Positions 1,487 through 60,320 of a stretch of DNA of 64,000 nucleotides are shown here, in pieces (position 1 is the stretch's first letter; every line of letters starts with the position of its first letter). This stretch comes from a bacterium (GTDB lineage Bacteria > Patescibacteriota > Patescibacteriia > UBA10025), in the NCBI GenBank assembly GCA_021815445.1, contig JAKAGM010000002.1:95511-159510 (forward strand). The letters run 5' to 3'. The notes beneath the pieces are model-generated. The model saw only the letters and a list, made by a program, of their open reading frames with translations. It had not been told where the DNA came from and ran no database searches. The position numbers and the translations under genes are program-made.

Positions 1487-1603
1487 CCCCGGCGATGGCC
1501 TACTTTCCCAACGAGCTAAGCTCGAAGTATCATCGGCGCTGGCAGGCTTAACGACCGAGTTCGGAATGGGATCGGGTGTGGCTCTGCCGCTTATATCACC
1601 AGG
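1487..1603 (-). rRNA. rrf: 5S ribosomal RNA
   Basis: Reverse complement aligns along its length with bacterial 5S (e.g. ...CCGAACTCGGTCGTTAAGCC..., ...CCTGGTGATATAAGCGGCAGAGCCACACCCGATCCCATTCCGAAC...). Confidence 0.85.
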
Positions 1604-1942
1604 GTTCTGAGACTGTTTACAGGAATGTAAAGGTAATGTGTTTGTGAAGAGCGTATCTTCTGTGAATACGGTTAAATACTCACGCTCTATTAGTACTCCT
1701 CCGCTTCACTCCTTACGGAGCTTCCACGTAGAGCCTATCAACCCAATAATCTCTTGGGGAGCTTACTGAAATGTAATCTTGAAGGAGGTTTCACGCTTAT
1801 ATGCTTTCAGCGTTTATCCTTGCCGAACGTCGCTACCGAGCAATGCCCCTGGTGGGACAACTCGTCGACGAGAGGTTCGTTCTTCCCGGTCCTCTCGTAC
1901 TAGGGAAGAGTCTTCTCACATTTCTACGCCCGCGACAGATAG

Positions 1943-1994
<52 letters not shown>

Positions 1995-2007
1995 TGGCGA
2001 ACAGCCA

Positions 2008-2038
<31 letters not shown>

Positions 2039-2225
2039 CGATGGGCCGACATCGAGGTGCCAAACCCCCTCGTCGATGTGGACTCTTGGAGGGGATCAGC
2101 CTGTTATCCCCGGAGTAGCTTTTATCCGATGAGCTTCCGCCGTCCTATTTCGTGGACATACTACCTGCTATCCCTTTTGCAAGGAACAACAAGTAATACG
2201 CCGCGTACGGTCGGATCACTAAGTT

Positions 2226-2256
<31 letters not shown>

Positions 2257-2852
2257 TGCAGTAAAGCTGGCTTGTGGCTTTGCCCTATCTCTCGCATTTC
2301 CATCGCGAGATAGCCAACCTTTGTAAACGCCTCCGTTACATTTTGGGAGGCGACCGCCCCAGTCAAACTACCCACCAGACACTGTCCGTTCCCCGGATTC
2401 ACGGGTGAACGTTAGTCATAAAACCATCTCAGCGTGGTATTCCATATTGCGACTCCACCCCATCCAAAGACAGGGTTTCATAGTCTCCCACGTATGCTCG
2501 GCAGAGAAAACTCTATGACAATGCCAAGTTGTAGTAAAGCTTCACGGGGTCTTTTCGTCTAGCCGCGGGTAACGAGCATCTTCACTCGTCTTGCAATTTC
2601 GCCGAGTCCCTCGTTGAGAGAGTTTTCAAGTCGTTATGCCATTCGTGCAGGTCGTAACTTACACGACAAGGAATTTCGCTACCTTAGGACGGTTATAGTT
2701 ACCGCCGGCGTTCGTCAGCGCTTCAGCTCGGAGCTTGCACCCCTCACCTTAACGTTCTGACACTGGCCAGGCATCAGCCCCTATACATCACCTTTCGGTT
2801 TAGCAGGGACCTGTGTTTTTGATAAACAGTCGCTTGAAATCGTTTGCTGTGT

Positions 2853-3156
2853 CCAGCACCACTTTCAGTTGCCAAGCGAATGTTGTATACGTCGATACAA
2901 TTCTTGCTTAGCTCTGCCATGTTGTTTCAATCTACGTTCCCGAAGTATGGCGTCTTGTTTATTGCCATACTGTTCGCAATAGACAAGCTGCCACGCGCCT
3001 GATTGACGGTTCGTTGACGTTTGATTGCCGCTGTTATGTTCCTGCAATCGTCGGTCAAGATTGTGTGTCAGGCCTATATATAACTCCTTACTTACTGAGT
3101 GTCTAATGACGTAGATGTTCCACATAGTATTTGCTCCTTAAACTGAAAGTGGTGCT
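2853..3156 (-). mobile_element. Insertion within 23S (helix 63 variable region): 18-bp inverted repeat stem enclosing a GIY-YIG ORF
   Basis: ccagcaccactttcagtt (2853-2870) and aactgaaagtggtgctgg (3139-3156) are perfect inverted repeats. Flanking sequence aligns to E. coli 23S about 1690 and about 1770, so the insert replaces a variable helix. Confidence 0.55.
2865..3125 (-). CDS. stand-alone GIY-YIG nuclease domain protein (86 aa, YhbQ/Slx1-URI-like) encoded inside 23S insertion
   Basis: N-terminus YVIRHSVSKELYIGLTHNLDRRLQEHNSG matches the GIY-(x10)-YIG...R...E...N signature. The ORF exactly fills the loop of the 18-bp stem. Confidence 0.6.
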   Translation of the reverse strand: MWNIYVIRHSVSKELYIGLTHNLDRRLQEHNSGNQTSTNRQSGAWQLVYCEQYGNKQDAILRERRLKQHGRAKQELYRRIQHSLGN

Positions 3157-4385
3157 GGAGGGCCATGTACCGAAGGTACGGCCGTTGTTTTGCCGAGTTC
3201 CTAAACGAGGGTTCTCTCGTACACCTTAGGCTTCTCGCCTCACCCACCTGTGTCGGTTTCCGGTACGGGTACTACACTGATAATGTCTTCAATCTTTTTC
3301 TAGGCACCACATTTTCGCAAATTGGTATTGCCTTGCGACGCCACCTTTTGCCATCCCCAGCTTTCGCTGAAAACAGCAACGCGCATAACCAGAACACGCC
3401 CGCAATAGCTTGATGCGTCAGAAAGAAGACTCAATGCAGTAGTGCTGGAATATTAACCAGCTGTCCATCGGCTACGCATGTTAAGCCTCACCTTAGGACC
3501 GACTAACCCTGGGTCGATTTGCGTTGCCCAGGAAACCTTGGGTTTTCGGTGGACGGGGTTCTCACCCGTCTTTTTGCTACTTATGCCAACATTCTCACTT
3601 CGAAGCGCTCCACCGCCTCTTGTCGAGACGACTTCATGGCACTTCGAACGCTCCTCTACCACTATCTCGATTCCGAAGAACCGAGATAATTCCCACGATC
3701 GGTACGAAACTTAGCCCCGGTACATTTTTGGTGCACAGAAGCTTGACTAGTGAGCTGTTACGCTTTCTTTAAAGGATGGCTGCTTCTAAGCCAACCTCCT
3801 AGTTGTCAGGACTTCTACACTGCCTTTTACACTTAGTTTCGATTTAGGGACCTTACGTTGGGATCTGGGCTGTTTCCCTTTTGACCGGTGAAGCTTTGAC
3901 CCCACGGTCTGACTCCCCAGATAGTCTGCATCGGCATTCGGAGTTTGGTTTAGTAAAGTAGGCTTACGCCATCTTCACCAATTCAGTGCTCTACCACCGA
4001 TGCGTAGTTACTGGAGGCTAGCCCTCAAGCTATTTCGAGGAGAACCAGCTATCGCCGAGCTCGATTGGAATTTCTCCGCTATCCACGGGTCATCCCCGCG
4101 TGTTGTACGGCGCGTGGGTTCGGACCTCCCCCGCCTTTTACGGCGGGTTCATCCTGCCCATGGATAGGTCGCACGGCTTCGGGTCTTGTCGACAGAATCA
4201 AGGCGCGCTATTAACGCTCGCTTTCACTGTGGCTATTCCCTTCTCGGGCTTCACCAAACTCTGTCGAACAAACTCGTTGGCTCATTCTTCAATAGGCACG
4301 CCGTCACCCGGCTTGCGCCGAGCTCCGACTCCTTGTAAGTATATGGTTTCAGATACTTTTCATCCCCCTCACCGGGGTGCTTTTT

Positions 4386-4416
<31 letters not shown>

Positions 4417-5317
4417 ATCACAAAACGTATTTAGCCTTGGGACGATAGTCGTCCCTGCTTCCCATAAAATTTCACGTGTTTCATGGTACTCGAGAGAAAT
4501 CATCGTAGCTCCCAATCCGTTTCGCTTACGGGACTGTCACCCTCTGTGGTAGAGCTTTCCAGCTCCTTCTGCTACGGACTGAAGAGTGCCTTCACCACCC
4601 CAGCTTGCGCCGGGACGGATAAGGAACTCCCTCTAGGTCTGCTACCTCGAATCTACAGGATTCGAACATAATTTCCTCATCAACGCCCTCTTTCATTGGG
4701 CCTGCACCCATATCCTGCATTGCTGCAGGAAGAGAAGAGAGTTTTGGCTGTTCCCCTTTCGCTCGCCACTACTTAGGGAATGGGCCAAATCACACATTGA
4801 TACCCTGTCTTTCGACAGGAGATCAAACGTGCAATCTGACATTTGTTTCTTTTCCTCTGGCTACTAAGATGTTTCAATTCACCAGGTAGTCTTCACTGTG
4901 CCTATGAATTCAGCACAGGATGGCTGGCTCTTCGCCAGTCGGGTTTCCCCATTCGGACATCTCCGGATCAAAGGTTGGTTGCCACCTCCCCGAAGCTTAT
5001 CGCAGGCTCCTACGTCCTTCATCGTCGTTTTGTGTCAAGGCATCCACCATATACCCTTAAACGAGTATTTAACCGTAATCGCAAATGATACGGTTCTTAC
5101 TATTTGATGCTCATCACTTATGTTACCTCTACTACTACATATTCAGTTGTTAACGTTCATTCCTTGAGCAGAAGTAGAAAGATGAAACTGTTTTCATGCT
5201 TCTATTTCGGTTCTAGGGTTGGAAAGGGCACTCCTTTACCTACAGGACCCTTCGACTTCGCCCCGTGTGACTGTGGGGCTCCGCTCAGGGCAACTCGCTG
5301 ACGCTCGTTGAGTATGA

Positions 5318-7231: not shown

Positions 7232-7376
7232 CCCTCCGGGCGGGCTCCACTTTTCTTTGCTCGTCCAAAGAAAAGTGGAGAGAAAAGAAAAGACGTCGCA
7301 GCGCAAACTCGGCCGTTTGGCCTATATCATTGTTCTATCGCCGGCCTCAGGCAGTGCGCCGCGCAAGGGGAAAATT
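7232..7376 (+). repeat. Structured intergenic repeat family, copy A (about 145 nt; candidate sRNA or MITE-like element)
   Basis: Near-identical to 22456-22589 and 36803-36958. Contains 13-bp hairpin ccacttttctttg/caaagaaaagtgg and a long-range helix with compensatory changes between copies. Confidence 0.6.
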
Positions 7377-8718: not shown

Positions 8719-10239
8719 TTGGGTGCAGAAAAGCTCTTTACCAAGTTGGAGGCATTAATTCGGCCCTCGGCAGCCGACAGTTATGCCGCCAGTATCACAG
8801 AGTGGTTCGACAAGACTTATGGCGCCACCTGTGAAGCCGCGTCAGCTGAACGCGGTGAAATCGCCGGGCATTTGCGGGCACGATCGCACGACGGCTTCAT
8901 TACGGAAGAGGTCGGCTCATGCCTTGACGCGTTGATGGAGGTCATTGACGATCTGCCTCCGGATCGCGCTGCGTGGGTGCGCAAGCTGGTGGACACCTAC
9001 AAAAGAGAGCGCGCGTTGACCGGTGAATTCATCCAGCGCAAAACGGGAGTAACGACTGCCGCACGTCGCGCATGGGCTGCTGCACGTGCGGAGTCAAACT
9101 TCTCACTCTTTGCCTCCTCCCTGCGGGAGGCGGTCAGCATCATGCGCGAGGAAGCTCAAATGCGCGGTGCCGGCGATCGCAGAGACGACATATACGGCGT
9201 ACTCGTCAATCTATGGGAACCCGGCTTTCCGATGGATCGTCTCGCGGTAATTTTTGACGGAATGCGGGACTTCACTGTACCGCTGCTCCAGCGGATCCGT
9301 GACACTGGAATCAAACCGAACACGTCGTTTCTCGACGGTCGTTTCGATCCGCGTGATCTTCTGCCACTCTCCCTGACGTTGATGCGCACCTTGGGCTTTG
9401 ACATGTCACGGGGGGGTCTCGACGAAACAACGCACCCATTCTGTTCCCGCGTGACACCGTCGGACGTTCGCTCTATGACGCGGTTTACCGAGGGTTTCCG
9501 AAGTTGGTTCTTCGGCATCGTCCATGAGATAGGGCACGCGCTCTATGAGCAGGGTGCGTGCGGTGTCAGTGACTGGATGTCGCCGGACGGTGTGCAGGTG
9601 TCACTCAGTATTCACGAATCTCAGTCACGCACGTGGGAAAACTTCGTCGGCCGCGGATCGTCCTTTTGGGAGTATTTCTACCCGATTCTGTGCAGCCATC
9701 TGCCGCAGTTTGTGGATGTGCCGCTCGACGAGTTTCTCCGGGCAACCAATGCTGTGACGCCGGGCTGTATCCGTACGAATGCCGACGAGGTGACGTACAA
9801 CCTCCACATCATCATTCGCTTCGAACTTGAACGGGCACTCTTCAACGGGGATATCAGCGTCGACGATCTGCCCTCTGAGTTCAATGATCGTATGGATCGA
9901 TACCTCGGCATCAGGCCGCCCAACGCGGCCCAGGGAATCCTCCAGGACATCCAGTGGTCAATCGGCTACTTCGGGTATTTCCCGACGTATACCCTGGGCA
10001 ATCTGTTCATGGCGCAGGTGGCCGAACGTTTCGCCGCGGAAAATCGCTACTATGTCAATGAGTTCCGCACTGGGAACTTCGGCATCCTCCTCGAATATCT
10101 TCGGGAAATGGTCCACAAGACCGGCTACACCGACGACATCGACGGGGCGCTCAGGCGGATTACCGGATCTCCGCTTGATCCGGGATACTGGCGCCGCTAT
10201 ATCATGTCGCGCGTCGGGCCGGTGTACGGGCTCAGCTGA
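8719..10239 (+). CDS. M32 family carboxypeptidase (carboxypeptidase Taq-like zinc metallopeptidase)
   Basis: HEIGHALYE (HEXXH), IHESQSRTWEN and GYFPTYTLGNLFMAQ motifs typical of peptidase M32. Probable TTG start 7 nt after AAGGGAGG. Confidence 0.8.
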   Translation: MGAEKLFTKLEALIRPSAADSYAASITEWFDKTYGATCEAASAERGEIAGHLRARSHDGFITEEVGSCLDALMEVIDDLPPDRAAWVRKLVDTYKRERALTGEFIQRKTGVTTAARRAWAAARAESNFSLFASSLREAVSIMREEAQMRGAGDRRDDIYGVLVNLWEPGFPMDRLAVIFDGMRDFTVPLLQRIRDTGIKPNTSFLDGRFDPRDLLPLSLTLMRTLGFDMSRGGLDETTHPFCSRVTPSDVRSMTRFTEGFRSWFFGIVHEIGHALYEQGACGVSDWMSPDGVQVSLSIHESQSRTWENFVGRGSSFWEYFYPILCSHLPQFVDVPLDEFLRATNAVTPGCIRTNADEVTYNLHIIIRFELERALFNGDISVDDLPSEFNDRMDRYLGIRPPNAAQGILQDIQWSIGYFGYFPTYTLGNLFMAQVAERFAAENRYYVNEFRTGNFGILLEYLREMVHKTGYTDDIDGALRRITGSPLDPGYWRRYIMSRVGPVYGLS

Positions 10240-10393
10240 TCCGCAACATCAACTTGATCTTTCCCCACGCAAGTCTCTCTACGACTTGGGTGGGTTTTTT
10301 CTCATTGACATAGTAACGCCAAACGTCTACAGTGCAGGCAAGTTCAAAGACTTCCGAGGAGTGAAAAGCGAACCCTAACGACTGGAGGAATTT

Positions 10394-10618
10394 ATGGGCG
10401 GACAAATGCCGGATGATGGCGTAAGACCGGCGGAAGAAGTCCCCGCAGAGTGCCCCAATTCTCCCACCAAGCAACATACGAAATGCGGGAGATATTGCGC
10501 CTACAGCGGAGAGGTGGTCAATTCCGGCAACGCTGTGATTCCAGGCTGTGGCCAACGACATTCCGCCAGCAAGGCACACGGCCACATCTACTGCATGGAT
10601 TGCGGCAAGAAGTTGTAA
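10394..10618 (+). CDS. small Cys-rich protein (74 aa), possible zinc finger
   Basis: Strong RBS ggaggaatttATG; Cys spacing C-x9-C-x3-C ... C-x2-C; terminator-like structure about 180 nt downstream (10790-10830). Confidence 0.35.
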   Translation: MGGQMPDDGVRPAEEVPAECPNSPTKQHTKCGRYCAYSGEVVNSGNAVIPGCGQRHSASKAHGHIYCMDCGKKL

Positions 10619-11811: not shown

Positions 11812-12534
11812 TTAAAGGCCGGTAAATTTTTCTACAATAACCTGCTCCTTGGGAAGCTGAAGATTTTTTAGCAGCGCTACCATGGCATCAACCATCGCCG
11901 GCGGACCGACGATCATATACGTGGGCCGCATGATATCGGGAATCTGGCGACGAAGCAATGCTTCATCGATTAACGTTCTTTCCCCGGTCCATGTGGCCTC
12001 AACGCGTTCCCCTCCCGTTAATGTCGGTACGAAGCGGAAAAAGGTATTTTTCTTTTCCCACGCCTCCAGGTCGGTATAGTAGGCGCATCCTTCCAGGCAA
12101 AAGTTGCTATAGAACAGAGTAATGTGATAGGGAAGCTGCCTGTCAGTAATATATTTGACCATGCTGCGGAACGGGGTAATACCGATGCCGCCGGCAAGGA
12201 AGACTAATTCCTTTGCCGTGTCTTGCGGAAGCACGAATTTTCCCGCAGGCCCGATGGCTAAAAACTCAGTGCCCACGGGGGCTTTAAGGAGACTCTGTTT
12301 ATATGCCGAATCACTCATCCGCATCGCAATCACGAGGTCGGGCTCTGTCGGTGATGAGGCAAACGACATGCTTCTCCGGTTTCCTTTTTTGTCCATTACG
12401 GGCTGGTTCAGGTAAATCCAGTTCATAAACTGCCCGGGCTGGTAATCAAACCCGTCCGGCTTGCTGAACGTGAACTCCATCGTGTTGTGCGCTATCTCGC
12501 GCTTGCCTTTGAGGAAGACGTGAAACTCTGGCAT
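11812..12534 (-). CDS. FAD/NAD(P)-binding oxidoreductase, ferredoxin-NADP reductase-like
   Basis: RSMSFAS (RxYS FAD motif) and LAGGIGITP (NAD(P) GxGxxP) motifs. Confidence 0.7.
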   Translation of the reverse strand: MPEFHVFLKGKREIAHNTMEFTFSKPDGFDYQPGQFMNWIYLNQPVMDKKGNRRSMSFASSPTEPDLVIAMRMSDSAYKQSLLKAPVGTEFLAIGPAGKFVLPQDTAKELVFLAGGIGITPFRSMVKYITDRQLPYHITLFYSNFCLEGCAYYTDLEAWEKKNTFFRFVPTLTGGERVEATWTGERTLIDEALLRRQIPDIMRPTYMIVGPPAMVDAMVALLKNLQLPKEQVIVEKFTGL

Positions 12535-15710: not shown

Positions 15711-15727
15711 CCGGATTCTGAATCCGG
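15711..15727. repeat. REP-like palindrome CCGGATTCTGAATCCGG (solo copy)
   Basis: Identical unit occurs in doublets at 46833-46882 and 49026-49073 near RAYT-type transposase genes. Confidence 0.5.
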
Positions 15728-22455: not shown

Positions 22456-22589
22456 CCCTCCGGGCGGGCTCCACTTTTCTTTGCTCGTCCAAAGAAAAGT
22501 GGAGAGAAAAGAAAAGACGTCGCAGCGCAAACTCACCCTGCACCATCAGATGGTGCAGGGCTCAAACATGCGCAGCGCGAGGGGGAATT
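22456..22589 (+). repeat. Structured intergenic repeat family, copy B
   Basis: First about 80 nt identical to copy A; middle hairpin replaced by ccctgcacca-tcaga-tggtgcaggg; 3' conserved block gcgcagcgcgagggg. Confidence 0.6.
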
Positions 22590-36802: not shown

Positions 36803-36958
36803 CCCTCCGGGGTGGGCTCCACTTTTCTTTGCTTGTCCAAAGAAAAGTGGAGAGAAAAGAAAGGACAGCACGGCGCAAACTCGGCCGTTTGGAAAATATC
36901 TCCCTTTTTTCGCCGGCCTCAGACAGTGCGCCGTGCGAGGGAAAAATCCTTTTCTGGC
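36803..36958 (+). repeat. Structured intergenic repeat family, copy C
   Basis: Aligns to copy A over 150 nt with compensatory substitutions (gtcgcagcgc/gcgccgcgc vs agcacggcgc/gcgccgtgc). Confidence 0.6.
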
Positions 36959-46440: not shown

Positions 46441-46737
46441 ATGATCGCAATCATTGACCCGTCGACAGGTAAGCCAACGAGACTACGTCCGGGTGACGTG
46501 ATTGAAGTCCGTCAAGGCGGTGGGACTGTCTCAATCAAGCGTGGCGGCGTTCCCTTACACTTCAAGCCGTCTCGCGGGAGTGCTGTCAAGGGCATCGCTC
46601 CCACAGAGATTGCTATCTCATTGTCGGGGTACTTGATGGAGCATGGTCTTATCGAGCTGATTGCCTGTCTCACAGGCAAGCCTGGCGAAGGTCGAGTCAG
46701 AGAATGCACGCGTACCTATCGGGCTACCGTTGGTTGA
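46441..46737 (+). CDS. hypothetical small protein (98 aa)
   Basis: Strong RBS tgaggaggtaacgaATG. Confidence 0.45.
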   Translation: MIAIIDPSTGKPTRLRPGDVIEVRQGGGTVSIKRGGVPLHFKPSRGSAVKGIAPTEIAISLSGYLMEHGLIELIACLTGKPGEGRVRECTRTYRATVG

Positions 46738-46832
46738 TCTCAGCACGTTTTACCTAGTTCCGAAGCCGGACATATCACGTTCGGCCTCGTTTTCTTTTTG
46801 GTTGAAACTTTGCTTTCCCCACGCCGAGCAGG

Positions 46833-46882
46833 TGGGATTCTGAATCCCGCTGCGATTTCATTTACCGGATTCTGAATCCGGC
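46833..46882 (+). repeat. REP-like palindromic doublet A: GGGATTCTGAATCCC - 17 nt - CCGGATTCTGAATCCGG
   Basis: Same architecture as doublet B at 49026-49073; solo unit at 15711. Confidence 0.6.
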
Positions 46883-46940
46883 CTCAGCGGTTTGGTTTGA
46901 TATTTAGAGGGTAAGTAGATAAGATAGTAAAGCCATAACT

Positions 46941-47684
46941 ATGAAACTTAAGGAAACCTTCAGAACCATCCCTCAGCACTACGACAGGTCGCGGATCGGG
47001 TATCCACTTGCTGTATTCAGTGATGTCATCTCCTATGCATGGTTACAAAAGACCGATCCGATCCTCGAAGTAGGCGCCGGCACCGGAATTGCCACGGTTC
47101 CATTTGCCCGCACGGGCAACCCGCTCATTGTCAACGACCTGAGCCGGTCATTACTCAGTGTCGCAAAGAAAAAATTAAAACACTACCACAACGTGCAATA
47201 CGCCGTCGGACAATATGAGGACGCTCGGCTTCCAAAGAATTATTTCGCGCTCATCACCTCGGCTCAAGCATTTCACTGGATAAAACCAAGCATACGATTT
47301 ACGAGAACCCTTCAGCTGCTCAAAAAAGGCGGGGTAGTAGCATTGTTTTGGAACTTTAGCTATTACAATAAAGGCGTGGGAAGGATGGCCATGCGACTCC
47401 ACAAGAAATATGCCCGTTCGCAAGACGGCAAAGCAAACATCATCATCGACCAGCTGAAACGGAATCGCCATTTTACCGGCGCTGTCCTGAAAATATATCG
47501 CCGGAACCTGCACATGACAAAGCAAGAATACATCAACATGCAGACGTCGTTCTCCTGGTATTTAGCGTTATCCGAAACACGAAAACGGCAAGCGCTTGCG
47601 GAACTGAAAGACGGGCTCAAAAGATTTCCTGATCGAATGCCGATGCCCATCAAAACCAAACTTATTCTCGCGAGGAAAAAATGA
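46941..47684 (+). CDS. class I SAM-dependent methyltransferase
   Basis: ILEVGAGTGIATVPFA motif I. Confidence 0.7.
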   Translation: MKLKETFRTIPQHYDRSRIGYPLAVFSDVISYAWLQKTDPILEVGAGTGIATVPFARTGNPLIVNDLSRSLLSVAKKKLKHYHNVQYAVGQYEDARLPKNYFALITSAQAFHWIKPSIRFTRTLQLLKKGGVVALFWNFSYYNKGVGRMAMRLHKKYARSQDGKANIIIDQLKRNRHFTGAVLKIYRRNLHMTKQEYINMQTSFSWYLALSETRKRQALAELKDGLKRFPDRMPMPIKTKLILARKK

Positions 47685-47729
47685 CCACACCAACTATCGA
47701 GTCACTCCAAAAAGCAATAATTTCTTTTG

Positions 47730-47810
47730 GATAAGAAAAAGCCCCACTCCAGAATTGCTTGGAGAGGGCCCGGCTGGCTATTTGATTCGCCGCGTATCTC
47801 AAGCCGGTTT
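47730..47810 (-). repeat. about 80-nt repeated 3'-UTR/terminator module (copy 1) behind membrane-protein gene
   Basis: About 85% identical to 48270-48350; hairpin ctcca..tggag then gggctttttc on minus strand. Confidence 0.5.
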
Positions 47811-48269
47811 TGTGCGACTTCTCTGGTACTCGATGCCAAGGCGATGGGCCGATTCCGCAATCATCAGACACCCGGCGGTAGCCCGCAGATGGTCGGTCCC
47901 TCTGCGGAAGTTTTCTGCGGCCATCACCAGTACGACGGCGACCAAGATGACTGTCACGCCGAAGGTGATCATGAATGGAAACGCGAAGGCATCCCAGTCG
48001 ACACCGAATGACCTCAGCCAGAATGCCGATACGTCCTGTTTCAGTCCGGTCGTTTCAACCATGAGTAGCGAGATAAGCATCGACGCGCATGTCACCACAA
48101 ACCCAATCGAGATGCGATTGATACGCCGAGACCAACGCTCATTGAACGCCAACCGATCTTCGAGCTTCAGTACATCTGCACTTTTTTGCATATCCATCCT
48201 CCTATGGGTTAGAATGTCACGAACGATTTTCACAGCTACCTTACCTGAGGACAAGTTTGGTGTCAACAA
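47799..48269 (-). CDS. hypothetical membrane protein
   Basis: TM helices; ends inside repeat copy 1. Confidence 0.4.
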   Translation of the reverse strand: MLTPNLSSGKVAVKIVRDILTHRRMDMQKSADVLKLEDRLAFNERWSRRINRISIGFVVTCASMLISLLMVETTGLKQDVSAFWLRSFGVDWDAFAFPFMITFGVTVILVAVVLVMAAENFRRGTDHLRATAGCLMIAESAHRLGIEYQRSRTKPA

Positions 48270-48350
48270 GATAAGAAAAAAGCCCCACTCCAGAATGGCT
48301 TGGAGAGGGCATGGCCGGCTACTTGATCTACCGTGTATTCAGCCGGCAAC
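48270..48350 (-). repeat. repeated 3'-UTR/terminator module (copy 2)
   Basis: See 47730-47810. Confidence 0.5.
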
Positions 48351-48737
48351 TTCGCAGGTCTGTCTTTTGCGCTTGAGGTCGTTCCAGCGATCCGTGATAC
48401 CGTAGTACAAAGCTCCCATTGGGCAGACAACCACGAAGAAGATGAGGGCCCCGACCATGAATGCCGGACTGGCAAGGATAAAAACGACGTCCGTGAGATG
48501 GACGAGCCATGCCCAGCAATTCCGTGGGAGAAACTTCATGCGGATCACCCCGAGATAGCCAGTTGCGATGCAAGACGGGAAATCGCTCGACTCCTCACCT
48601 TCCATGTTGCGCTCCGCTCTCCAGCCAGGCGCGGTAAATTTCGCGAAAAAGGCTGCGACGTAGTGGGCGAGCAGTAGCAGGCCCAGCATGAACAGCAACG
48701 CTATCGTTTGCTGATGAACATACTTACAGCAATCCAT
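48339..48737 (-). CDS. hypothetical membrane protein
   Basis: TM helices; ends inside repeat copy 2. Confidence 0.4.
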   Translation of the reverse strand: MDCCKYVHQQTIALLFMLGLLLLAHYVAAFFAKFTAPGWRAERNMEGEESSDFPSCIATGYLGVIRMKFLPRNCWAWLVHLTDVVFILASPAFMVGALIFFVVVCPMGALYYGITDRWNDLKRKRQTCEVAG

Positions 48738-48804
48738 TGAAAACCTCGCTTGTTGAAGGGTGCAGTGTTACCTCCGTTGTATGTTTTGCGTTACTATGGC
48801 GGGT

Positions 48805-49371
48805 TTATAGGAAACTGTCAAACGCTGACGAATATGGAAAATCCTCCGGGTTGATTACAAAGCCGGCCCGAACTGGGTTGTCGTGGATGTAGTTGAGCTT
48901 TTGCTCGAGGAAACGCTCAGAGTAAATATTTTCAACCCAGTTGTTCGGTTGCCAAACTCTGAACTCTTGTTTTGATGAGTTGAGATAAAATGTATTGAGC
49001 ATAGTTTTTGTCCATTCTGAAGAGGCGGGATTCGGAATCCCGCGGGGTAATTGGTATGCCGGATTCTGAATCCGGCCTTCTCGTTTATCGTATTTTAACT
49101 GCTCGATGATTTGTTTGGCAGTATGTTTTTTGAAATCCCGGAGAATATTCGAGATGAAGTATTTACTCTCAGGCCAGATGATGTAGTGAAGATGGTTTGG
49201 CATTATTACATAGCCAATTACATCAAACTTTTTGCTTTTGGAATAGAAACGCAGATTGTCTAGGATTATTCGACAATATGCATCACTAACAAATATCGGC
49301 ATGTCATGCCAAACCTTCGTTGTCACGAAATACGTATGACCATGAACATTAATTGTCCGCAATCGGGACAT
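48805..49371 (-). mobile_element. RAYT/IS200-like HUH tyrosine transposase gene (copy 1) carrying an in-frame REP-doublet-containing insertion
   Basis: HUH motif VIMPNHLHYII, RVWQ, catalytic-Tyr helix NYIHDNPVRAG, PEDFPYSS. About 38 extra aa relative to copy 2 coincide with palindromes at 49026-49073 that encode GRIQNPA/RGIPNPA. Confidence 0.65.
49026..49073 (+). repeat. REP-like palindromic doublet B (inside RAYT copy 1 coding sequence)
   Basis: GCGGGATTCGGAATCCCGC - 12 nt - CCGGATTCTGAATCCGG. Confidence 0.6.
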
Positions 49372-51379
49372 TGCGCGATTTTGCCCTACTTTTCTTGTAC
49401 TTTGTCCACGCCACTGCGCCGCACGCACTTATTATTGCCGTTGCGCCTATCGCATACCACACTGGGTTGTCATTCTTTTTCCTGGTCTCAATCGGGATAA
49501 CTTCTGGAGCATTCTCGACAGCTTGACCGAGAACCTCGGGTTTGACTAAATCTCCGTCTTCACGGGGGACAAGCCGGGCTGCGCCGCTTACTATTTCGAC
49601 GATGCCCGTGACTATTACTTTATCGCCTTCTTTCCAGTCCGGCTTTTTTATATTTGTTGTCCGTTTGAAGAACACATCTGCTATGAAACCATCATCGCCT
49701 GTTATTGAGAATTTTAATGGCCCTGTAGCCGAGATGCTCCCCTGGATTCTGACAAACTGGGCCGGGTAATCTGCCATCTTGCCAACCGCGATGTCTTTTG
49801 GTGATAACCCCTGTGATCCTGCAACAGTTACATCATCTCTGTTTTTGACATTGATCTTCGGCTGGCCTTGTTCTGTCCCTATAGTGCCGTGGATGGTGAC
49901 GGTATCTCCGGCGGAAATCTCCGGAAAGCCGGCCGAGGAAACTACTTTGATTCCGGCGGTATTGTCCTGAATATATAGAATCCCACTTCCCAAAAGATCC
50001 GGCTCAGCAAGAGCTACGCCCGAGATTTCAACTGACACGCCGTGTTCGGCCCGACGAGCTTCGGCGATTGTCATATTTTTTATTTCCGCATCAACGCTTT
50101 TCTTCTTCTCCTCCTGAGCAGGCGCGGCAGGCAGTGTCGAAGAACCGGCATTTTCGACCAGACTGTTTTCACTGTTCGGCGAAGGTTCGGTCCATTTCCA
50201 CCCGCCATTTGTAAAGAAAGCAAAAGCCCTGTCTTTCGGAGCTTTTTCGTATTTGACTCCCTGTACCACCTTGTCAAGCGGATTGATGAGATAAATCGCG
50301 TCTCCTTCGTTATTAAGCGTGATTTTAGTTTTTGATTTTGGGAAAGCGATAACGTCGTCCACTTCCAAGGCGAGCTGGCTCTGGATGATGAATGTTTTTT
50401 TAGTATCAGTCAGCCGCCAGCCGCGCAGCTGGATTGTTTTTGATGATATATTCATCAGTTCAATGTATTCTTCCTGCGTCGCGTCGCCCGGCGCGGGTAA
50501 AAGTTCATTGAGGCGTATCCCGCTGGTATCAGGTGATGATGGCAGAGGCGGAGGAGTCGGTGCAGGCGTATTCACCGTTGGAGTTGGTACGGGTTGCACG
50601 GTGCTTGGTGTCGTCGATGAAGGGGAAGACGGAGCAGATGGAGAGATTGCCGGCGACTCGGCAACTGTTGGAACGGGGGACAGAGGCGTTACTTTCGGAT
50701 TATTCATAGTTACGAATTCAGCTTCACTCCGCGAGTTTTGTGGTTCAGGAATGTTACGTGTGACGAAATCAGCGCCGTTATGGTCAGTATCTTCGCTGTT
50801 TCCCTTAAAGTAATCTTCGCCTCCGTCCAGCATGGCCTCTGACGTTGAGCTTGTGACTGCTTTACGCTCAATACTTTTGTTCGAAGCGGGATTTGCTACA
50901 GCTTCACCTTCATATACCGTTGAGGTTCCAAAACCTACTACGTCAACCACTGTTCCCATTTGATCATAGAGAATGACCGTGTTGTTTGTGGCGATAGAAT
51001 TTGCCGTAGAATACACTGCATCAGGCACTATCGATCCCGTATACCCCGAAGGATGCGCGATAAGGAAAAAACTTCCGGGCGGAAGTGTTCGTTCCCCAAT
51101 GGCGGTTACCAGATCGTATTCGTTTCCCGAAGCGGTTTTCTTTGTCAGGCGGTACCCAGCGATTGATACATCAACAGCCGTCGGGTTATACAGTTCGACG
51201 AATTCGTCGGTCGATTGGCCGGTGCCGCCGCCGACTTTTATCTCGCTGATCACAAGATGACTGCTTTGAGCTGCGCGGACTGACATCTGGCAGCATGTAA
51301 GAATCAACACCGAGGATAAAATGAAAATAAAAAAGAGTCTCATAATGTTATTGTGATATAGACAACGCAGAGTTTTCAC
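49349..51379 (-). CDS. secreted/cell-surface protein with two lamin-tail domains, Pro/Ser/Thr-rich linker and C-terminal membrane anchor
   Basis: Two EF(V/I)ELYNP LTD signatures (DEFVELYNPT, EEYIELMNIS), about 60-aa PT-rich linker, C-terminal TM helix then KYKKSRAKSR. Confidence 0.65.
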   Translation of the reverse strand: MKTLRCLYHNNIMRLFFIFILSSVLILTCCQMSVRAAQSSHLVISEIKVGGGTGQSTDEFVELYNPTAVDVSIAGYRLTKKTASGNEYDLVTAIGERTLPPGSFFLIAHPSGYTGSIVPDAVYSTANSIATNNTVILYDQMGTVVDVVGFGTSTVYEGEAVANPASNKSIERKAVTSSTSEAMLDGGEDYFKGNSEDTDHNGADFVTRNIPEPQNSRSEAEFVTMNNPKVTPLSPVPTVAESPAISPSAPSSPSSTTPSTVQPVPTPTVNTPAPTPPPLPSSPDTSGIRLNELLPAPGDATQEEYIELMNISSKTIQLRGWRLTDTKKTFIIQSQLALEVDDVIAFPKSKTKITLNNEGDAIYLINPLDKVVQGVKYEKAPKDRAFAFFTNGGWKWTEPSPNSENSLVENAGSSTLPAAPAQEEKKKSVDAEIKNMTIAEARRAEHGVSVEISGVALAEPDLLGSGILYIQDNTAGIKVVSSAGFPEISAGDTVTIHGTIGTEQGQPKINVKNRDDVTVAGSQGLSPKDIAVGKMADYPAQFVRIQGSISATGPLKFSITGDDGFIADVFFKRTTNIKKPDWKEGDKVIVTGIVEIVSGAARLVPREDGDLVKPEVLGQAVENAPEVIPIETRKKNDNPVWYAIGATAIISACGAVAWTKYKKSRAKSRNVPIADN

Positions 51380-51441
51380 TCTGCTAAGCCCAAGACTGAT
51401 CCACGGGGGCTAAGCGAAGCGTATGCCTCGCGACGCTAGTA

Positions 51442-51966
51442 TTAATTAGTTTTAAAATAATCAATGATAGGATAATACTCGAAGTAAGAATCAAGCAATT
51501 CCTGTCCGTAAGTTTTTTGAAAATGGAGGTAACTAGAAAAGGGATATGACTCCATCCGCTCTGCGACGCCATGTTTAATACAGTTATGATGGATATAGTT
51601 AACTCGTTTCCAAAAATCTGTTTCAGTCCGCACGCATGTGTCCCAGTATTGGTAAAAAACTCTCCTATTTTTCTTATGATCTATCACGTTGAGAGCCAAC
51701 GCAACCTTACTGTGGAATGTCCGGACAAATCGCGGCAGGGATTCAGCCGCGGACACTCTTATTAAAAGATGGTAGTGCGTACTCATGATAACCCATGCAT
51801 AGAGGCATATGTTGTTCCGAGCTGCAACCGAAAAAAGTGTTGCAAGTATCAATCTTTTTTTAAAATCTGTTTCCATGAAGAAATAATGCCGAAATGTCGT
51901 ACCGGTAATAAAATATACCTGATTATCAAGGTAGAGATGCGGCGGCCGGTGAATTTCCATCCTCAT
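51442..51966 (-). mobile_element. RAYT/IS200-like HUH tyrosine transposase gene (copy 2)
   Basis: VIMSTHYHLLI (HUH), LPRFVR, NYIHHNCIKHGV. Confidence 0.65.
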
Positions 51967-52079
51967 ACCGGAGTATTGATTACGCGAAGCTTATGCTTCG
52001 CTAAGCCTAGGACTGATTTGCGTGGCTTAGCCAAGCGTACGCTTGGTGATGTTAGTAGTTTGTTATATATTCCGAATCC

Positions 52080-52298
52080 CTAATACACCTTCAAAACCTT
52101 CGTTTCCACTACTCGCGAAGGCGTCTGGATTTCAATAATATCACCCTCCTCATGCCCGAGTAATGCCTTGCCGACAGGCGAGCCAAACGAGATGCGGCCC
52201 GTTTCGGGGTCGCCGCGCGACTCAACTATCGAAAATTTCTGCCGCCGCTCCGAAAGTAGTAGTTCGACCTCGGAGCCGATGAAAATGCTTTTTGACAT
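52080..52298 (-). CDS. GreA/GreB C-terminal (FKBP-like) domain-only protein, 72 aa
   Basis: ISFGSPVGKALLGHEEGDIIEIQTPSRVVETKVLKV matches Gre-factor C-terminal domain; no N-terminal coiled coil in any frame. Confidence 0.55.
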   Translation of the reverse strand: MSKSIFIGSEVELLLSERRQKFSIVESRGDPETGRISFGSPVGKALLGHEEGDIIEIQTPSRVVETKVLKVY

Positions 52299-52398: not shown

Positions 52399-52821
52399 TT
52401 ACGCTTCCGATTCAATCGGAATCTTCGCGACTGTCACATCCTCGGGAGCAACTTCTGTGTTCACCTTATCGCTCTTGTCCGCTTTGCCGCTCTTGCCGCC
52501 GAGCATGATAAGCTGGTTGGCGACAATCTCGGTGCGGTATCGCTTGGCTCCGTGCTTGTCCTCCCAGTTTCTGGTGTTGAGACGGCCTTCAATATAGACG
52601 CGGTCACCTTTCTTGAGGTATTTCGCGACGATATTTCCGAGGCGTCCCCACGCAACTACAGGGTGGAATTCGGTTGCCTGCTGCCGCTCCTTCGACTCGG
52701 CGTCTTTCCACGTATAGTTTGTAGCGACGGTAAACGTGGTCAACGACGCGCCGGACGGAAGCGCCCGTACTGCGGGATCCTGCGTCAGGTTGCCGATCAA
52801 CGACACTTTGTTGAGGTTCAT
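52399..52821 (-). CDS. ssb: single-stranded DNA-binding protein
   Basis: MNLNKVSLIGNLTQDP...OB fold...C-terminal acidic tail; start set at MNLNKV. Confidence 0.8.
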   Translation of the reverse strand: MNLNKVSLIGNLTQDPAVRALPSGASLTTFTVATNYTWKDAESKERQQATEFHPVVAWGRLGNIVAKYLKKGDRVYIEGRLNTRNWEDKHGAKRYRTEIVANQLIMLGGKSGKADKSDKVNTEVAPEDVTVAKIPIESEA

Positions 52822-53043
52822 ACGCTTGATTTTCTCCCTCCAAAAATTAATGATTAAAGCTGTTTCGACCTTGTATTGACAAAAATAAATTGATCTGCAT
52901 AATACAAAGCAGGTGCATGAAACCATTTACGCTGCTTAAAAACAGCAGTAGTGTGGATTCACCAATTGCAGCAAGTGCACACTGCGGTTGACCTCAAACC
53001 TCCAAAGGACGACCGGCCCGCAAAAGCTAAGGTCGTTTTTTGG

Positions 53044-59895: not shown

Positions 59896-60165
59896 CTTGT
59901 CCGGAATTTGATTTTTGCTGCGATAGGCATATACTTACTTTAGTTAAGTACTTTGACTATCCGGGAGGGGGTTCACGGCCCTCTTAGTTGGTGAAGCGAG
60001 CGTTTAAAGGCTCTTTGTCCACGGTGACACCTCCAGCATTTTTGTTCGGATGGGGAACTTTAAGCGGCTCAGCGCAGGAATCACGGATGATTCCTGCGCT
60101 TTTTCTTATGGACCTTGACTGATTTTATCTACGTGGTATCATCTATCTATTACTTTTTCTTATAA

Positions 60166-60320
60166 GGAGCGGAGCGAGGGAATTGGCCCAAAGACCTCCC
60201 GGCAGCCTGTCCCACAAGGGATGTACGGTGCCACGTCCAACCTCTTCATCGGCAAGGGGAAGATAAGAAGAATGCAGAGTCTTCTTATCAACGATAAGAA
60301 TTCTTTTATATATTATTAAC
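60166..60320 (+). promoter_or_regulatory. SAM-I (S-box) riboswitch with terminator/antiterminator expression platform controlling metK
   Basis: TTCTTATAAGGAGCGGAGCGAGGGAATTGGCCCAAAGACCTCCCGGCAGCC ... GGTGCC ... GAAGATAAGAAG matches S-box consensus. Antiterminator GATAAGAAGA/TCTTCTTATC competes with P1 and with terminator TCTTATC-aac-GATAAGA then TTCTTTT. Confidence 0.75.

Follow-up and report, generated by a model that had tools for sequence, protein, structure and literature searches.

Among domesticated transposases that coexist with their own non-autonomous elements, none has been studied more than those of repetitive extragenic palindromes (REPs), the REP-associated tyrosine transposases (RAYTs); almost all of this work was done on Proteobacteria. 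RAYTs bind and cut REP hairpins on single-stranded DNA (ssDNA), as was established for TnpA_REP of Escherichia coli (4ER8). The systems of Pseudomonas and E. coli, in which RAYTs occur with REP doublets forming hairpins (REPINs) or bacterial interspersed mosaic elements (BIMEs), were reportedly described by Bertels and Rainey in 2011 and by Nunvar in 2010. Ogata is said to have reported Rickettsia palindromic elements (RPEs) inside open reading frames (ORFs) in 2000. Here we analyze RAYT-1, a RAYT gene that carries a REP unit within its own reading frame. The gene lies in a stretch of 64,000 nucleotides from a Patescibacteria genome (contig JAKAGM010000002.1, positions 95,511 to 159,510), which we call the window. 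Our comparisons indicate that RAYT-1 probably works with cognate REPs of the subclass 2.6 type, and that the unit inside the gene is held as a hairpin and tracks the REPs of its own genome, probably by serving as their landing pad.

Quentin et al. 2018 describe subclass 2.6 (= Bertels Group 5) as mostly Bacteroidetes RAYTs of about 179 aa with the motifs NH[LIV]H, WQ, and YIH[QN]NP, an extra segment between alphaC and beta4, and genes flanked by “atypical secondary structures” (PMC6006769). Table S1 of that work lists as subclass 2.6 REPs CAGCGGATTTATAATCCGCTG, CAATCGGATTTGCAATCCGATTG, and GGATTTGTAATCC for B. xylanisolvens, GGATTGCAAATCC-type hairpins for F. johnsoniae, and CGTTGGGATTACAAATCCCAACG for Runella. 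REPs in frame within tnpA_REP are described there for subclass 2.4 (Bertels Group 4) and called a “unique feature of subclass 2.4” (Fig. S10); some members of subclass 2.8 also have an in-gene REP insert. REPs inside other ORFs are already known as well (Di Nocera 2013, PMC3733652). In the published full text we found nothing relevant on RAYTs in the candidate phyla radiation (CPR) or Patescibacteria, nor on the hairpin strings described below.

RAYT-1 and the REPs of the window are as follows (numbers with L and P, used below, are our labels for loci and proteins).

48805..49371, minus strand: RAYT-1, 188 aa (ORF list, Pfam Y1_Tnp, NCBIfam NF047646)
49019..49082, minus strand: in-frame REP unit within RAYT-1, 64 nt, about 21 aa
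49058..49076, minus strand: in-gene hairpin 1, GCCGGATT-cwg-AATCCGGC, 8-bp stem
49025..49043, minus strand: in-gene hairpin 2, GCGGGATT-csg-AATCCCGC, 8-bp stem
46826..46885, minus strand: intergenic REP unit, doublet A, upstream of the methyltransferase gene 46941-47684(+)
15711..15727: solo REP hairpin CCGGATTCTGAATCCGG, intergenic, followed by TTTAATAATAAAAAA

Against Pfam Y1_Tnp (cut-off 23 bits), RAYT-1 scored 28.2 bits and a second minus-strand gene, RAYT-2, 25.1 bits. The scores against NF047646, the NCBIfam equivalog “REP-associated tyrosine transposase” (cut-off 80 bits), were 110.7 and 89.5 bits. Both cut-offs are passed by both ORFs, in agreement with an earlier reading of this DNA from its letters (hereafter the sequence-only reading), which had taken them for RAYT-type HUH/Y1 enzymes. 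RAYT-1 shows the features that define the class, namely the Y1_Tnp fold, an HUH motif (NHLH), and, after WQ, a tyrosine in Y---NP (YIHDNP); H60, H62, W140, and Y161 are invariant in an alignment of 18 sequences. REPs elsewhere in the genome, which also belong to the definition, are represented by the five hairpins of the window and by the hairpins around homologues. The AlphaFold2 (AF2) model of RAYT-1 has a predicted local distance difference test (pLDDT) score of 85.6, and its best Foldseek match in the PDB is 4ER8_A (E 2.2e-9), the structure of TnpA_REP of E. coli in complex with a REP hairpin. RAYTs differ from multicopy insertion sequences in low copy number and vertical inheritance; the 64-kb window has no further copy of RAYT-1, and its gene neighborhoods recur in relatives (see below). 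We regard RAYT-1 as a probably single-copy HUH/Y1 enzyme that is predicted to cut ssDNA hairpins.

RAYT-1 appears to fit best into subclass 2.6 (Group 5), an assignment made by motifs and REP type. Its NHLH and WQ agree with the motifs of this subclass, and close orthologues have YIHNNP or YIHQNP; its own YIHDNP is one residue off the consensus YIH[QN]NP, which counts against the assignment. The model contains a helix (118-127) between alphaC and beta4. Relatives without the insert are 178-182 aa long and Bacteroidota homologues, one of them from Runella, 180-183 aa. The REPs are atypical in having no GT[AG]G foot, and the hairpins match the entries CBK69331.1, ABQ05095.1, and AEI47904.1 of Table S1. 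The features of subclass 2.4 were not found: no GTAG stands beside the hairpins, the insert lies after alphaC (helix 73-98) and before beta4, and the HUH motif is NHLH.

The palindrome SGGATTCKGAATCCS occurs in the window at 15712, 46834, 46866, 49027, and 49060, i.e., at five sites, each of which reads on both strands. The expectation is 0.05 sites, and none of 100 shuffled sequences reached five, so the palindrome family of two doublets and one solo copy noted in the sequence-only reading is real. On the minus strand both doublets have a common layout: a CCGG-type hairpin, 16-17 nt, and a GGG-type hairpin. The hairpin types thus follow in the same order in doublet A and in the in-gene unit, and GCCGG and GCGGG stem types are present in both, while the spacers differ. 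The spacer of doublet A includes GAAATCGCA, which is also found in the unit of L003. Doublet A is overlapped by no ORF and folds at -13.9 kcal/mol (z -2.95); the dispersed REP copies of the window, L003, L127, and L142 are all intergenic. A search of the whole window against Rfam at the gathering threshold found no family at the hairpins, only the 23S and 5S rRNA, two tRNAs, and a SAM riboswitch. The possibility that GGATTCGAATCC-like strings are tRNA T-arms was ruled out, as the hairpins lie outside tRNA genes and have another stem-loop layout. The divergent intergenic region between polA(-) and the methyltransferase gene(+) that contains doublet A (46455-46940) is unusually long, about 490-630 nt depending on the true polA start, and also holds a 98-aa ORF (46441-46737) with no Pfam match.

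The in-gene doublet (49027/49060) is in frame and encodes GRIQNPA...RGIPNPA, as had been read from the codons before. The unit begins with GAGAAGG and ends with CCTCTTC, and between these lie hairpins 1 and 2, whose extended stems are separated by a 14-nt spacer; it folds into two hairpins (-17 kcal/mol, z -3.9) and contributes a peptide of about 21 aa, (R)EGRIQNPAYQLPRGIPNPASS. The distance from the HUH motif to the tyrosine is 102 aa in RAYT-1 vs 81 aa in insert-free relatives, a difference to which the 64-nt unit (about 21 codons) corresponds. The sequence-only reading had counted about 38 extra residues; the palindromes give only about 21 of them, and the remainder is helix 118-127, which is present in the subfamily anyway. 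In the AF2 model the REP-encoded residues, approximately 99-117, form a low-confidence loop (pLDDT 57-64) between alphaC (73-98) and this helix.

The homologues that BLASTP places nearest to RAYT-1 (P0002-P0005 and P0145-P0150) come from Patescibacteria and have 54-61% identity with it. When aligned, their loop at this position shows two to four repeats of G-[G/R]-I-x-N-P, a stretch that is missing from Bacteroidota homologues. Close orthologues from other Patescibacteria (L001, L003, L004, L133, and L156; 49-66% aa identity) contain perfect 7-10-bp hairpins in the same alphaC/beta4 loop, and codon listings for L001, L003, and L004 give the same reading frame as in the window. The units of the orthologues start with GAGAAGG and finish with CCTTCTC or CCTCTTC. 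No REP directly flanks the Patescibacteria RAYT genes, unlike the flanked Bacteroidota homologues. In homologues aligned with RAYT-1 the extra segment thus comes with palindromic DNA, and not as the palindrome-free native loop that the sequence-only reading had named as the alternative. Of its claim that a doublet had inserted into this particular gene, the in-frame position stands; the insertion is not private to this genome, being common to all close orthologues and to a wide clade of Patescibacteria RAYTs. The in-frame doublet is therefore no one-off recent insertion.

The constraint on the unit was assessed at synonymous sites as third-position agreement at codons for the same amino acid in two orthologues; the counts are pairwise and linked by kinship. 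Hairpin families are lettered A to F. In family A, third positions are identical in 66 of 85 cases (78%) within the hairpins vs 419 of 915 (46%) elsewhere in the gene. The identity is 35/35 (100%) vs 52% in family C and 8/8 (100%) vs 38% in family B. Covariation was studied on 27 family A hairpins from nine Patescibacteria loci. The five apical pairs are invariant in all of them. The pairs 4-20 (CG18/UA7/AU1/UG1) and 5-19 (GC14/CG11/UA2) vary and are unpaired in none of the 27. Cells with both sides changed number 24 vs 11.2 +/- 2.2 in shuffles (0/500 shuffles reaching this), and pairing drops to 22-58% when the registers are slid by one to three columns. Compensatory changes of the stem alter the peptide: GGC..GCC encodes Gly..Ala, GGA..TCC Gly..Ser, GGT..ACC Gly..Thr, and GAC..GTC Asp..Val. 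The loop codon is free to change and encodes Q, P, R, S, K, C, T, or N. Folded as ssDNA, the units are much more stable than shuffled controls (z -2.6 to -6.0). Judged by these substitution patterns, what is conserved in the in-gene unit is the hairpin in DNA (or RNA) and not the peptide.

The association of such hairpins with RAYTs extends to other phyla. We scanned one genome per species, 185,579 species in total, for the GGATT-N3-AATCC doublet and obtained at least 120 loci (832 kb). Among the matches listed, they belong mostly to Bacteroidota, with some Planctomycetota and Chloroflexota and no Patescibacteria; the scan therefore informs on the association of REPs and RAYTs in other phyla and gives no copy number for the organism of the window. 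The hairpins of these loci share the invariant apex GGATT / 3-nt loop / AATCC, and their outer stem varies from copy to copy and stays complementary. Although the loci were picked by DNA pattern alone, 11 of the 120 contain, among the matches listed, a full-length homologue of RAYT-1 (30-37% identical). The hairpins lie within 500 nt of the gene in these 11 loci, on both sides in 9, on one side in 2, and inside the gene in 0. Homologues of RAYT-1 flanked by hairpins have the classic REPtron layout. Together with the listing of such hairpins for subclass 2.6 in Table S1, they support the proposal of the sequence-only reading that the palindromes are the cognate REPs of RAYT-1. At L035 (2856-3090), L040 (6322-7049), and L116, GGATT-N3-AATCC hairpins are repeated in tandem at regular intervals (35, 137, and 38 nt) and not dispersed as doublets; the genomes with tandem arrays include a Pseudanabaena and a Cytophagales metagenome-assembled genome.

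More distant orthologues of RAYT-1 (L125, L127-L132) have other hairpin families at the same site. The in-frame hairpins, with identity of the protein to RAYT-1, include:

L127 (P0007), 39%: GGCGAAAGC-cctc-GCTTTCGCC and ACTGCGAGC-gagg-GCTCGCAGT
L125 (P0006) and L132, 46% for P0006: GACAAGGTC-tcct-GACCTTGTC-type, five hairpins in L132
L130, 38%: GGCGAGGTC-cctt-GACCTCGCC and GCCTGGGTC-aagg-GACCCAGGC
L131, 36%: GTCGAGGC-gtttct-GCCTCGAC

A profile search returned 1334 relatives, many of them with an HUH-to-Tyr distance of 88-186 aa. Their inserts belong to recurring motif families: G-I-x-N-P; REALAPRPEL / TRSPDLV; GRRKPSLSPYS..ASEGS.LP; GRRGPLTS..LGQGTQ; and GSRGVSAST. These motifs are translated hairpins. 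In a crude neighbor-joining tree built without the insert columns, the families are clade-specific, with switching inside clades: family A forms a paraphyletic group around B; C encloses D, E, and F; and an insert-free clade with proteins of 178-182 aa is sister to A+B.

In three genomes (the window, L003, and L127) the in-gene unit matches nearby extragenic copies. The intergenic unit of L127 (about 4700-4765) matches the in-gene one over about 70 nt at roughly 85-90% by eye; it extends into the flanks (GGGTGGG...TACCCG), and at one position a C-G pair is replaced by T-A in compensation. The intergenic unit of L003 (8650-8725) corresponds to the in-gene one in reverse complement, with an identical 18-nt stretch of the spacer, AAATCGCAAACCCAGGAG, and the stem subtypes GGCGGG and GGTCGG are found both within and outside the gene. 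The number of hairpins per gene ranges from 2 to 5. In L156 (3340-3480) the family A unit within the RAYT ORF contains, nested at its end, another and different hairpin element, GGTTGGATC-agga-GATCCAACC, which is bounded by a 12-nt direct duplication, CCGACCTTCTCG; a target-site duplication is unexpected from Y1 transposition. The variation in hairpin number and the nesting in L156 point to turnover. A single Patescibacteria contig (L128) has three Y1_Tnp genes or fragments within 2.6 kb (9638-9994, 10001-10597, and 11855-12220), the third with a family C hairpin doublet at 12154-12200.

We propose the following explanation, which we consider likely. The putative cognate REPs of RAYT-1 have an invariant GGATT-N3-AATCC apex, a freely covarying outer stem, an arrangement in two-hairpin units of about 60-75 nt, and GAGAAGG/CCTTCTC-like ends. 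The invariant apex with the free outer stem suggests that the enzyme recognizes the apex of the hairpin. In an ancestral Patescibacteria RAYT, a REP unit would first have settled in the loop between alphaC and beta4, where insertion is tolerated. The resident REP would then act as a landing pad for recurring RAYT-mediated insertion, replacement, or gene conversion, with selection retaining only those outcomes that are in frame and non-disruptive in this loop; GGATTCAGAATCC has no stop codon in any of the three frames. Such a role would keep the in-gene copy a perfect hairpin and in step with the other REPs of the genome. Where genes are dense and ORFs overlap, nesting would also tie a REP copy to the enzyme without using intergenic space. 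Several points weigh against this explanation. The pairwise counts at synonymous sites lack phylogenetic independence, the tree on which family switching is read is crude, and the REPs counted, two doublets and one solo hairpin, come from 64 kb of the genome. A scan of JGI (Joint Genome Institute) metagenomes for the C-N-G doublet pattern gave 22 matches, about 5 of them genuine and the others mostly unrelated coding tandem repeats (acidic or Ser-rich low-complexity), so this subtype is rare there. Around L129-L133, no exact-core copy was found outside the gene within +/-10 kb; for this reason the in-gene hairpins may be nearly the sole copies in some lineages, which would suit a resident functional element better than repeated insertion.

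Such an element is the subject of one rival explanation, by which the unit in the ORF is functional in cis, either as a master or template copy from which dispersed units arise or as an autoregulatory site that RAYT binds on ssDNA or mRNA. In its favor, the unit is present at one site in every orthologue examined, with 100% synonymous identity in families B and C; Patescibacteria genes are without flanking REPs while Bacteroidota homologues are flanked; several lineages have no other copy seen within 20 kb; the loop adjoins the region tied to REP recognition by Quentin et al. (PMC6006769); and, within one genome, the dispersed units and the in-gene one are almost the same from end to end. The hairpin number (2-5), the spacing, and the nested or mixed families of L003, L132, and L156 nevertheless resemble insertion turnover, and we hold a cis function to be unlikely, though worth considering. 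In a stronger form, the Patescibacteria architecture would be inverted, with the REP nested in the ORF of its own transposase and selected as a cis element (a master copy seeding the dispersed units, or a self-recognition site through which the enzyme would sense or regulate its own gene). A hairpin and a protein co-evolving as an inseparable locus would explain why the family changes along the RAYT tree and the site never does; this too appears to us a doubtful idea. Different spacers in the two doublets of the window speak against a cis element and also against a single recent and neutral event by which a REP doublet came to lie in RAYT-1 of this genome. The latter would account for the hairpin types and their order being shared by the in-gene and intergenic doublets of the window; it is very improbable, as orthologues 49-66% identical, with synonymous sites largely randomized, have the unit at the same site, and in L001, L003, and L004 in the same frame. 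The loop might also be native, with G-I-x-N-P repeats selected as a peptide, palindromy as a by-product, and the intergenic copies as gene fragments. The motifs do recur at the protein level in many homologues, and GRRKPSLSPYS..ASEGS.LP of family C is strikingly conserved. We give this explanation very little credence, since synonymous sites of the hairpins are conserved well beyond those of the remaining gene, compensatory stem changes alter the peptide (A/S/T/V) with the loop codon free, the same hairpins are non-coding and gene-flanking in other phyla and intergenic in either orientation, and the loop has low pLDDT.

The surroundings of RAYT-1 invite one more explanation, also put forward in the sequence-only reading, in which two RAYTs and the gene between them form a composite or hitch-hiking mobile unit. 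The features concerned are the following.

51442..51966, minus strand: RAYT-2, 174 aa (NCBIfam NF047646); extra gene between GreA and LTD compared with L004
49349..51379, minus strand: surface protein with two lamin-tail domains and an OB domain (LTD-LTD-OB) and a C-terminal membrane anchor, 676 aa (Pfam)
51975..52060, minus strand: upstream copy of the RAYT-2 flanking repeat, with a 21-nt-arm inverted repeat 51987-52007 / 52024-52044
51375..51441, minus strand: the same flanking repeat downstream of RAYT-2, in the orientation of the upstream copy and with 77% identity to it

RAYT-2, the LTD gene, and RAYT-1 are co-directional, so that two Y1 transposase genes do bracket one surface-protein gene on the same strand. 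The description of the 676-aa product as a protein with two lamin-tail domains also holds, with LTD in two stretches (106.4 bits) and a weak match to OB in Pfam. RAYT-1 and RAYT-2, however, are not copies of each other: they share only a 38-aa local match of 32% identity, and RAYT-2 has the HUH motif THYH (HYH) and the tyrosine motif YIHHNC, with Cys in place of the Pro of Y---NP. Of 24 homologues of RAYT-2 (32-47% identical), one is named as Patescibacteria. The order in the window is SSB (52399-52926), GreA (52080-52298), RAYT-2, LTD, RAYT-1. It is SSB-GreA-LTD-RAYT in L004, SSB-LTD-RAYT in L001, and LTD-RAYT in L125, and RAYT-2 is absent from all three loci. Since relatives keep their order without it, RAYT-2 is an extra segment of about 700 nt. 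The RAYT-1 start codon ATG lies upstream of the LTD stop, with an overlap of 23 nt; the two ORFs overlap in L001, L004, and L125 too, the range including the window being 8-23 nt. A direct repeat of about 65 nt, peculiar to RAYT-2, stands on either side of the gene in the 77% identical copies given above; it can form a hairpin (GCTWAGCC...GGCTTAGC), and no further copy of it was found in the window. Near-identical transposase copies with matching ends, as expected of a composite transposon, are thus not seen here: the repeats of RAYT-2 differ from those of RAYT-1 and enclose RAYT-2 alone, no terminal repeats are shared around the trio, and the LTD gene is syntenic. The LTD gene is a conserved operon neighbor and not cargo, and RAYT-2, between its two repeats, makes up a small REPtron of its own. 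We therefore abandon the composite unit, which is the least credible of the explanations considered here.

In L127 (1642-3800), L130 (10001-12048), and L133 (10001-11891) the context is GlmS-RAYT-ComEC: the RAYT orthologue stands directly upstream of ComEC (DUF4131 + Competence), with GlmS further upstream. Both contexts of the RAYT, ComEC and LTD(-OB), involve probable DNA-binding or DNA-uptake proteins. A functional link of the ssDNA-hairpin nuclease to DNA uptake is conceivable.

Further features of the window lie apart from the RAYT genes. The Rfam matches include 23S rRNA at 1669-5073(-), 5S rRNA at 1487-1603(-), and the SAM riboswitch at 60157-60269(+). At 3405 nt, the match to 23S rRNA is longer than the model (2925 positions), and for this reason the gene may contain an insertion or intron. 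Insertions and introns are common in CPR rRNA genes. A second repeat family, unrelated to the REPs, has three copies of about 85-90 nt, all on the plus strand, at 7232-7320, 22456-22535, and 36804-36890. Its core is a perfect hairpin with a 15-bp stem, CTCCACTTTTCTTTG-ctygtc-CAAAGAAAAGTGGAG (7245-7280, 22469-22504, and 36817-36852), preceded by CCCTCCGGG(C/G)(G/T)GGG and followed by AGAAAAGAAAAGAC..GCGCAAACTC. This repeat could be a miniature inverted-repeat transposable element, a REP-like element, or a small-RNA/terminator module. Its connection with RAYT-2 was considered and dropped when that gene proved to have a flanking repeat of its own.

A system apparently of the subclass 2.6 type, with hairpins marked by a conserved apex and not by a GTAG foot, thus reaches the ultra-small Patescibacteria. 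There a REP unit that is held as a hairpin recodes a surface loop beside the presumed REP-recognition region. The orthologues would offer a natural series of matched enzyme/hairpin pairs, and thereby a route to study changes in the hairpin specificity of Y1 HUH enzymes; the series also bears on the question for whose sake REPs are maintained, that of the host, that of the enzyme, or their own. A caution follows for annotators: G-I-x-N-P, GRRKPSLSP, and similar “motifs” in these proteins are translated repeats and not protein domains.

Compared with subclass 2.6 (PMC6006769), RAYT-1 is alike in NH[LIV]H, WQ, Y---NP, the extra helix between alphaC and beta4, the absence of the GTAG foot, and GGATT-N3-AATCC REPs; it differs in the Patescibacteria host, the REP unit within the ORF, the lack of directly flanking REPs, and YIHDNP. 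With subclass 2.4 (PMC6006769) it shares in-frame REPs between the HUH and Tyr motifs, which vary in length and sequence and lie in a peripheral loop. Subclass 2.4, however, has the insert between beta3 and alphaC, REPs with a GT[AG]G foot that also flank the gene, and NH[IFV]H, whereas here the insert is between alphaC and beta4 and the REPs are without GTAG. The REPIN/BIME-RAYT systems of Pseudomonas and E. coli resemble the present one in dispersed, non-autonomous intergenic two-hairpin units and probably also in a single-copy, vertically inherited Y1 enzyme, and 4ER8 is the best structural match. Unlike in those systems, REP units here seem to be few (roughly one in 20-30 kb of the DNA examined, vs hundreds of copies), the apex and not a 5' GTAG foot is conserved, and one unit is nested in the ORF. 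RPEs and REPs in ORFs (PMC3733652) are likewise in-frame palindromes that add a surface peptide to a gene that stays functional; RPEs strike many unrelated genes and have no known cognate transposase, while in the present case the gene that takes up the palindromes encodes their cognate transposase, at a site conserved across a clade. In-frame REPs in RAYT genes, described for subclass 2.4, and GGATT hairpins as REPs of subclass 2.6 are thus already known (PMC6006769), and the in-gene REP, which the sequence-only reading had called unusual, is not unprecedented. What is new is its presence in a Patescibacteria lineage of the subclass 2.6 type, in a different loop and with no immediately flanking REPs, together with a quantified constraint at the nucleotide level and a hairpin family that has been replaced repeatedly at a fixed site.

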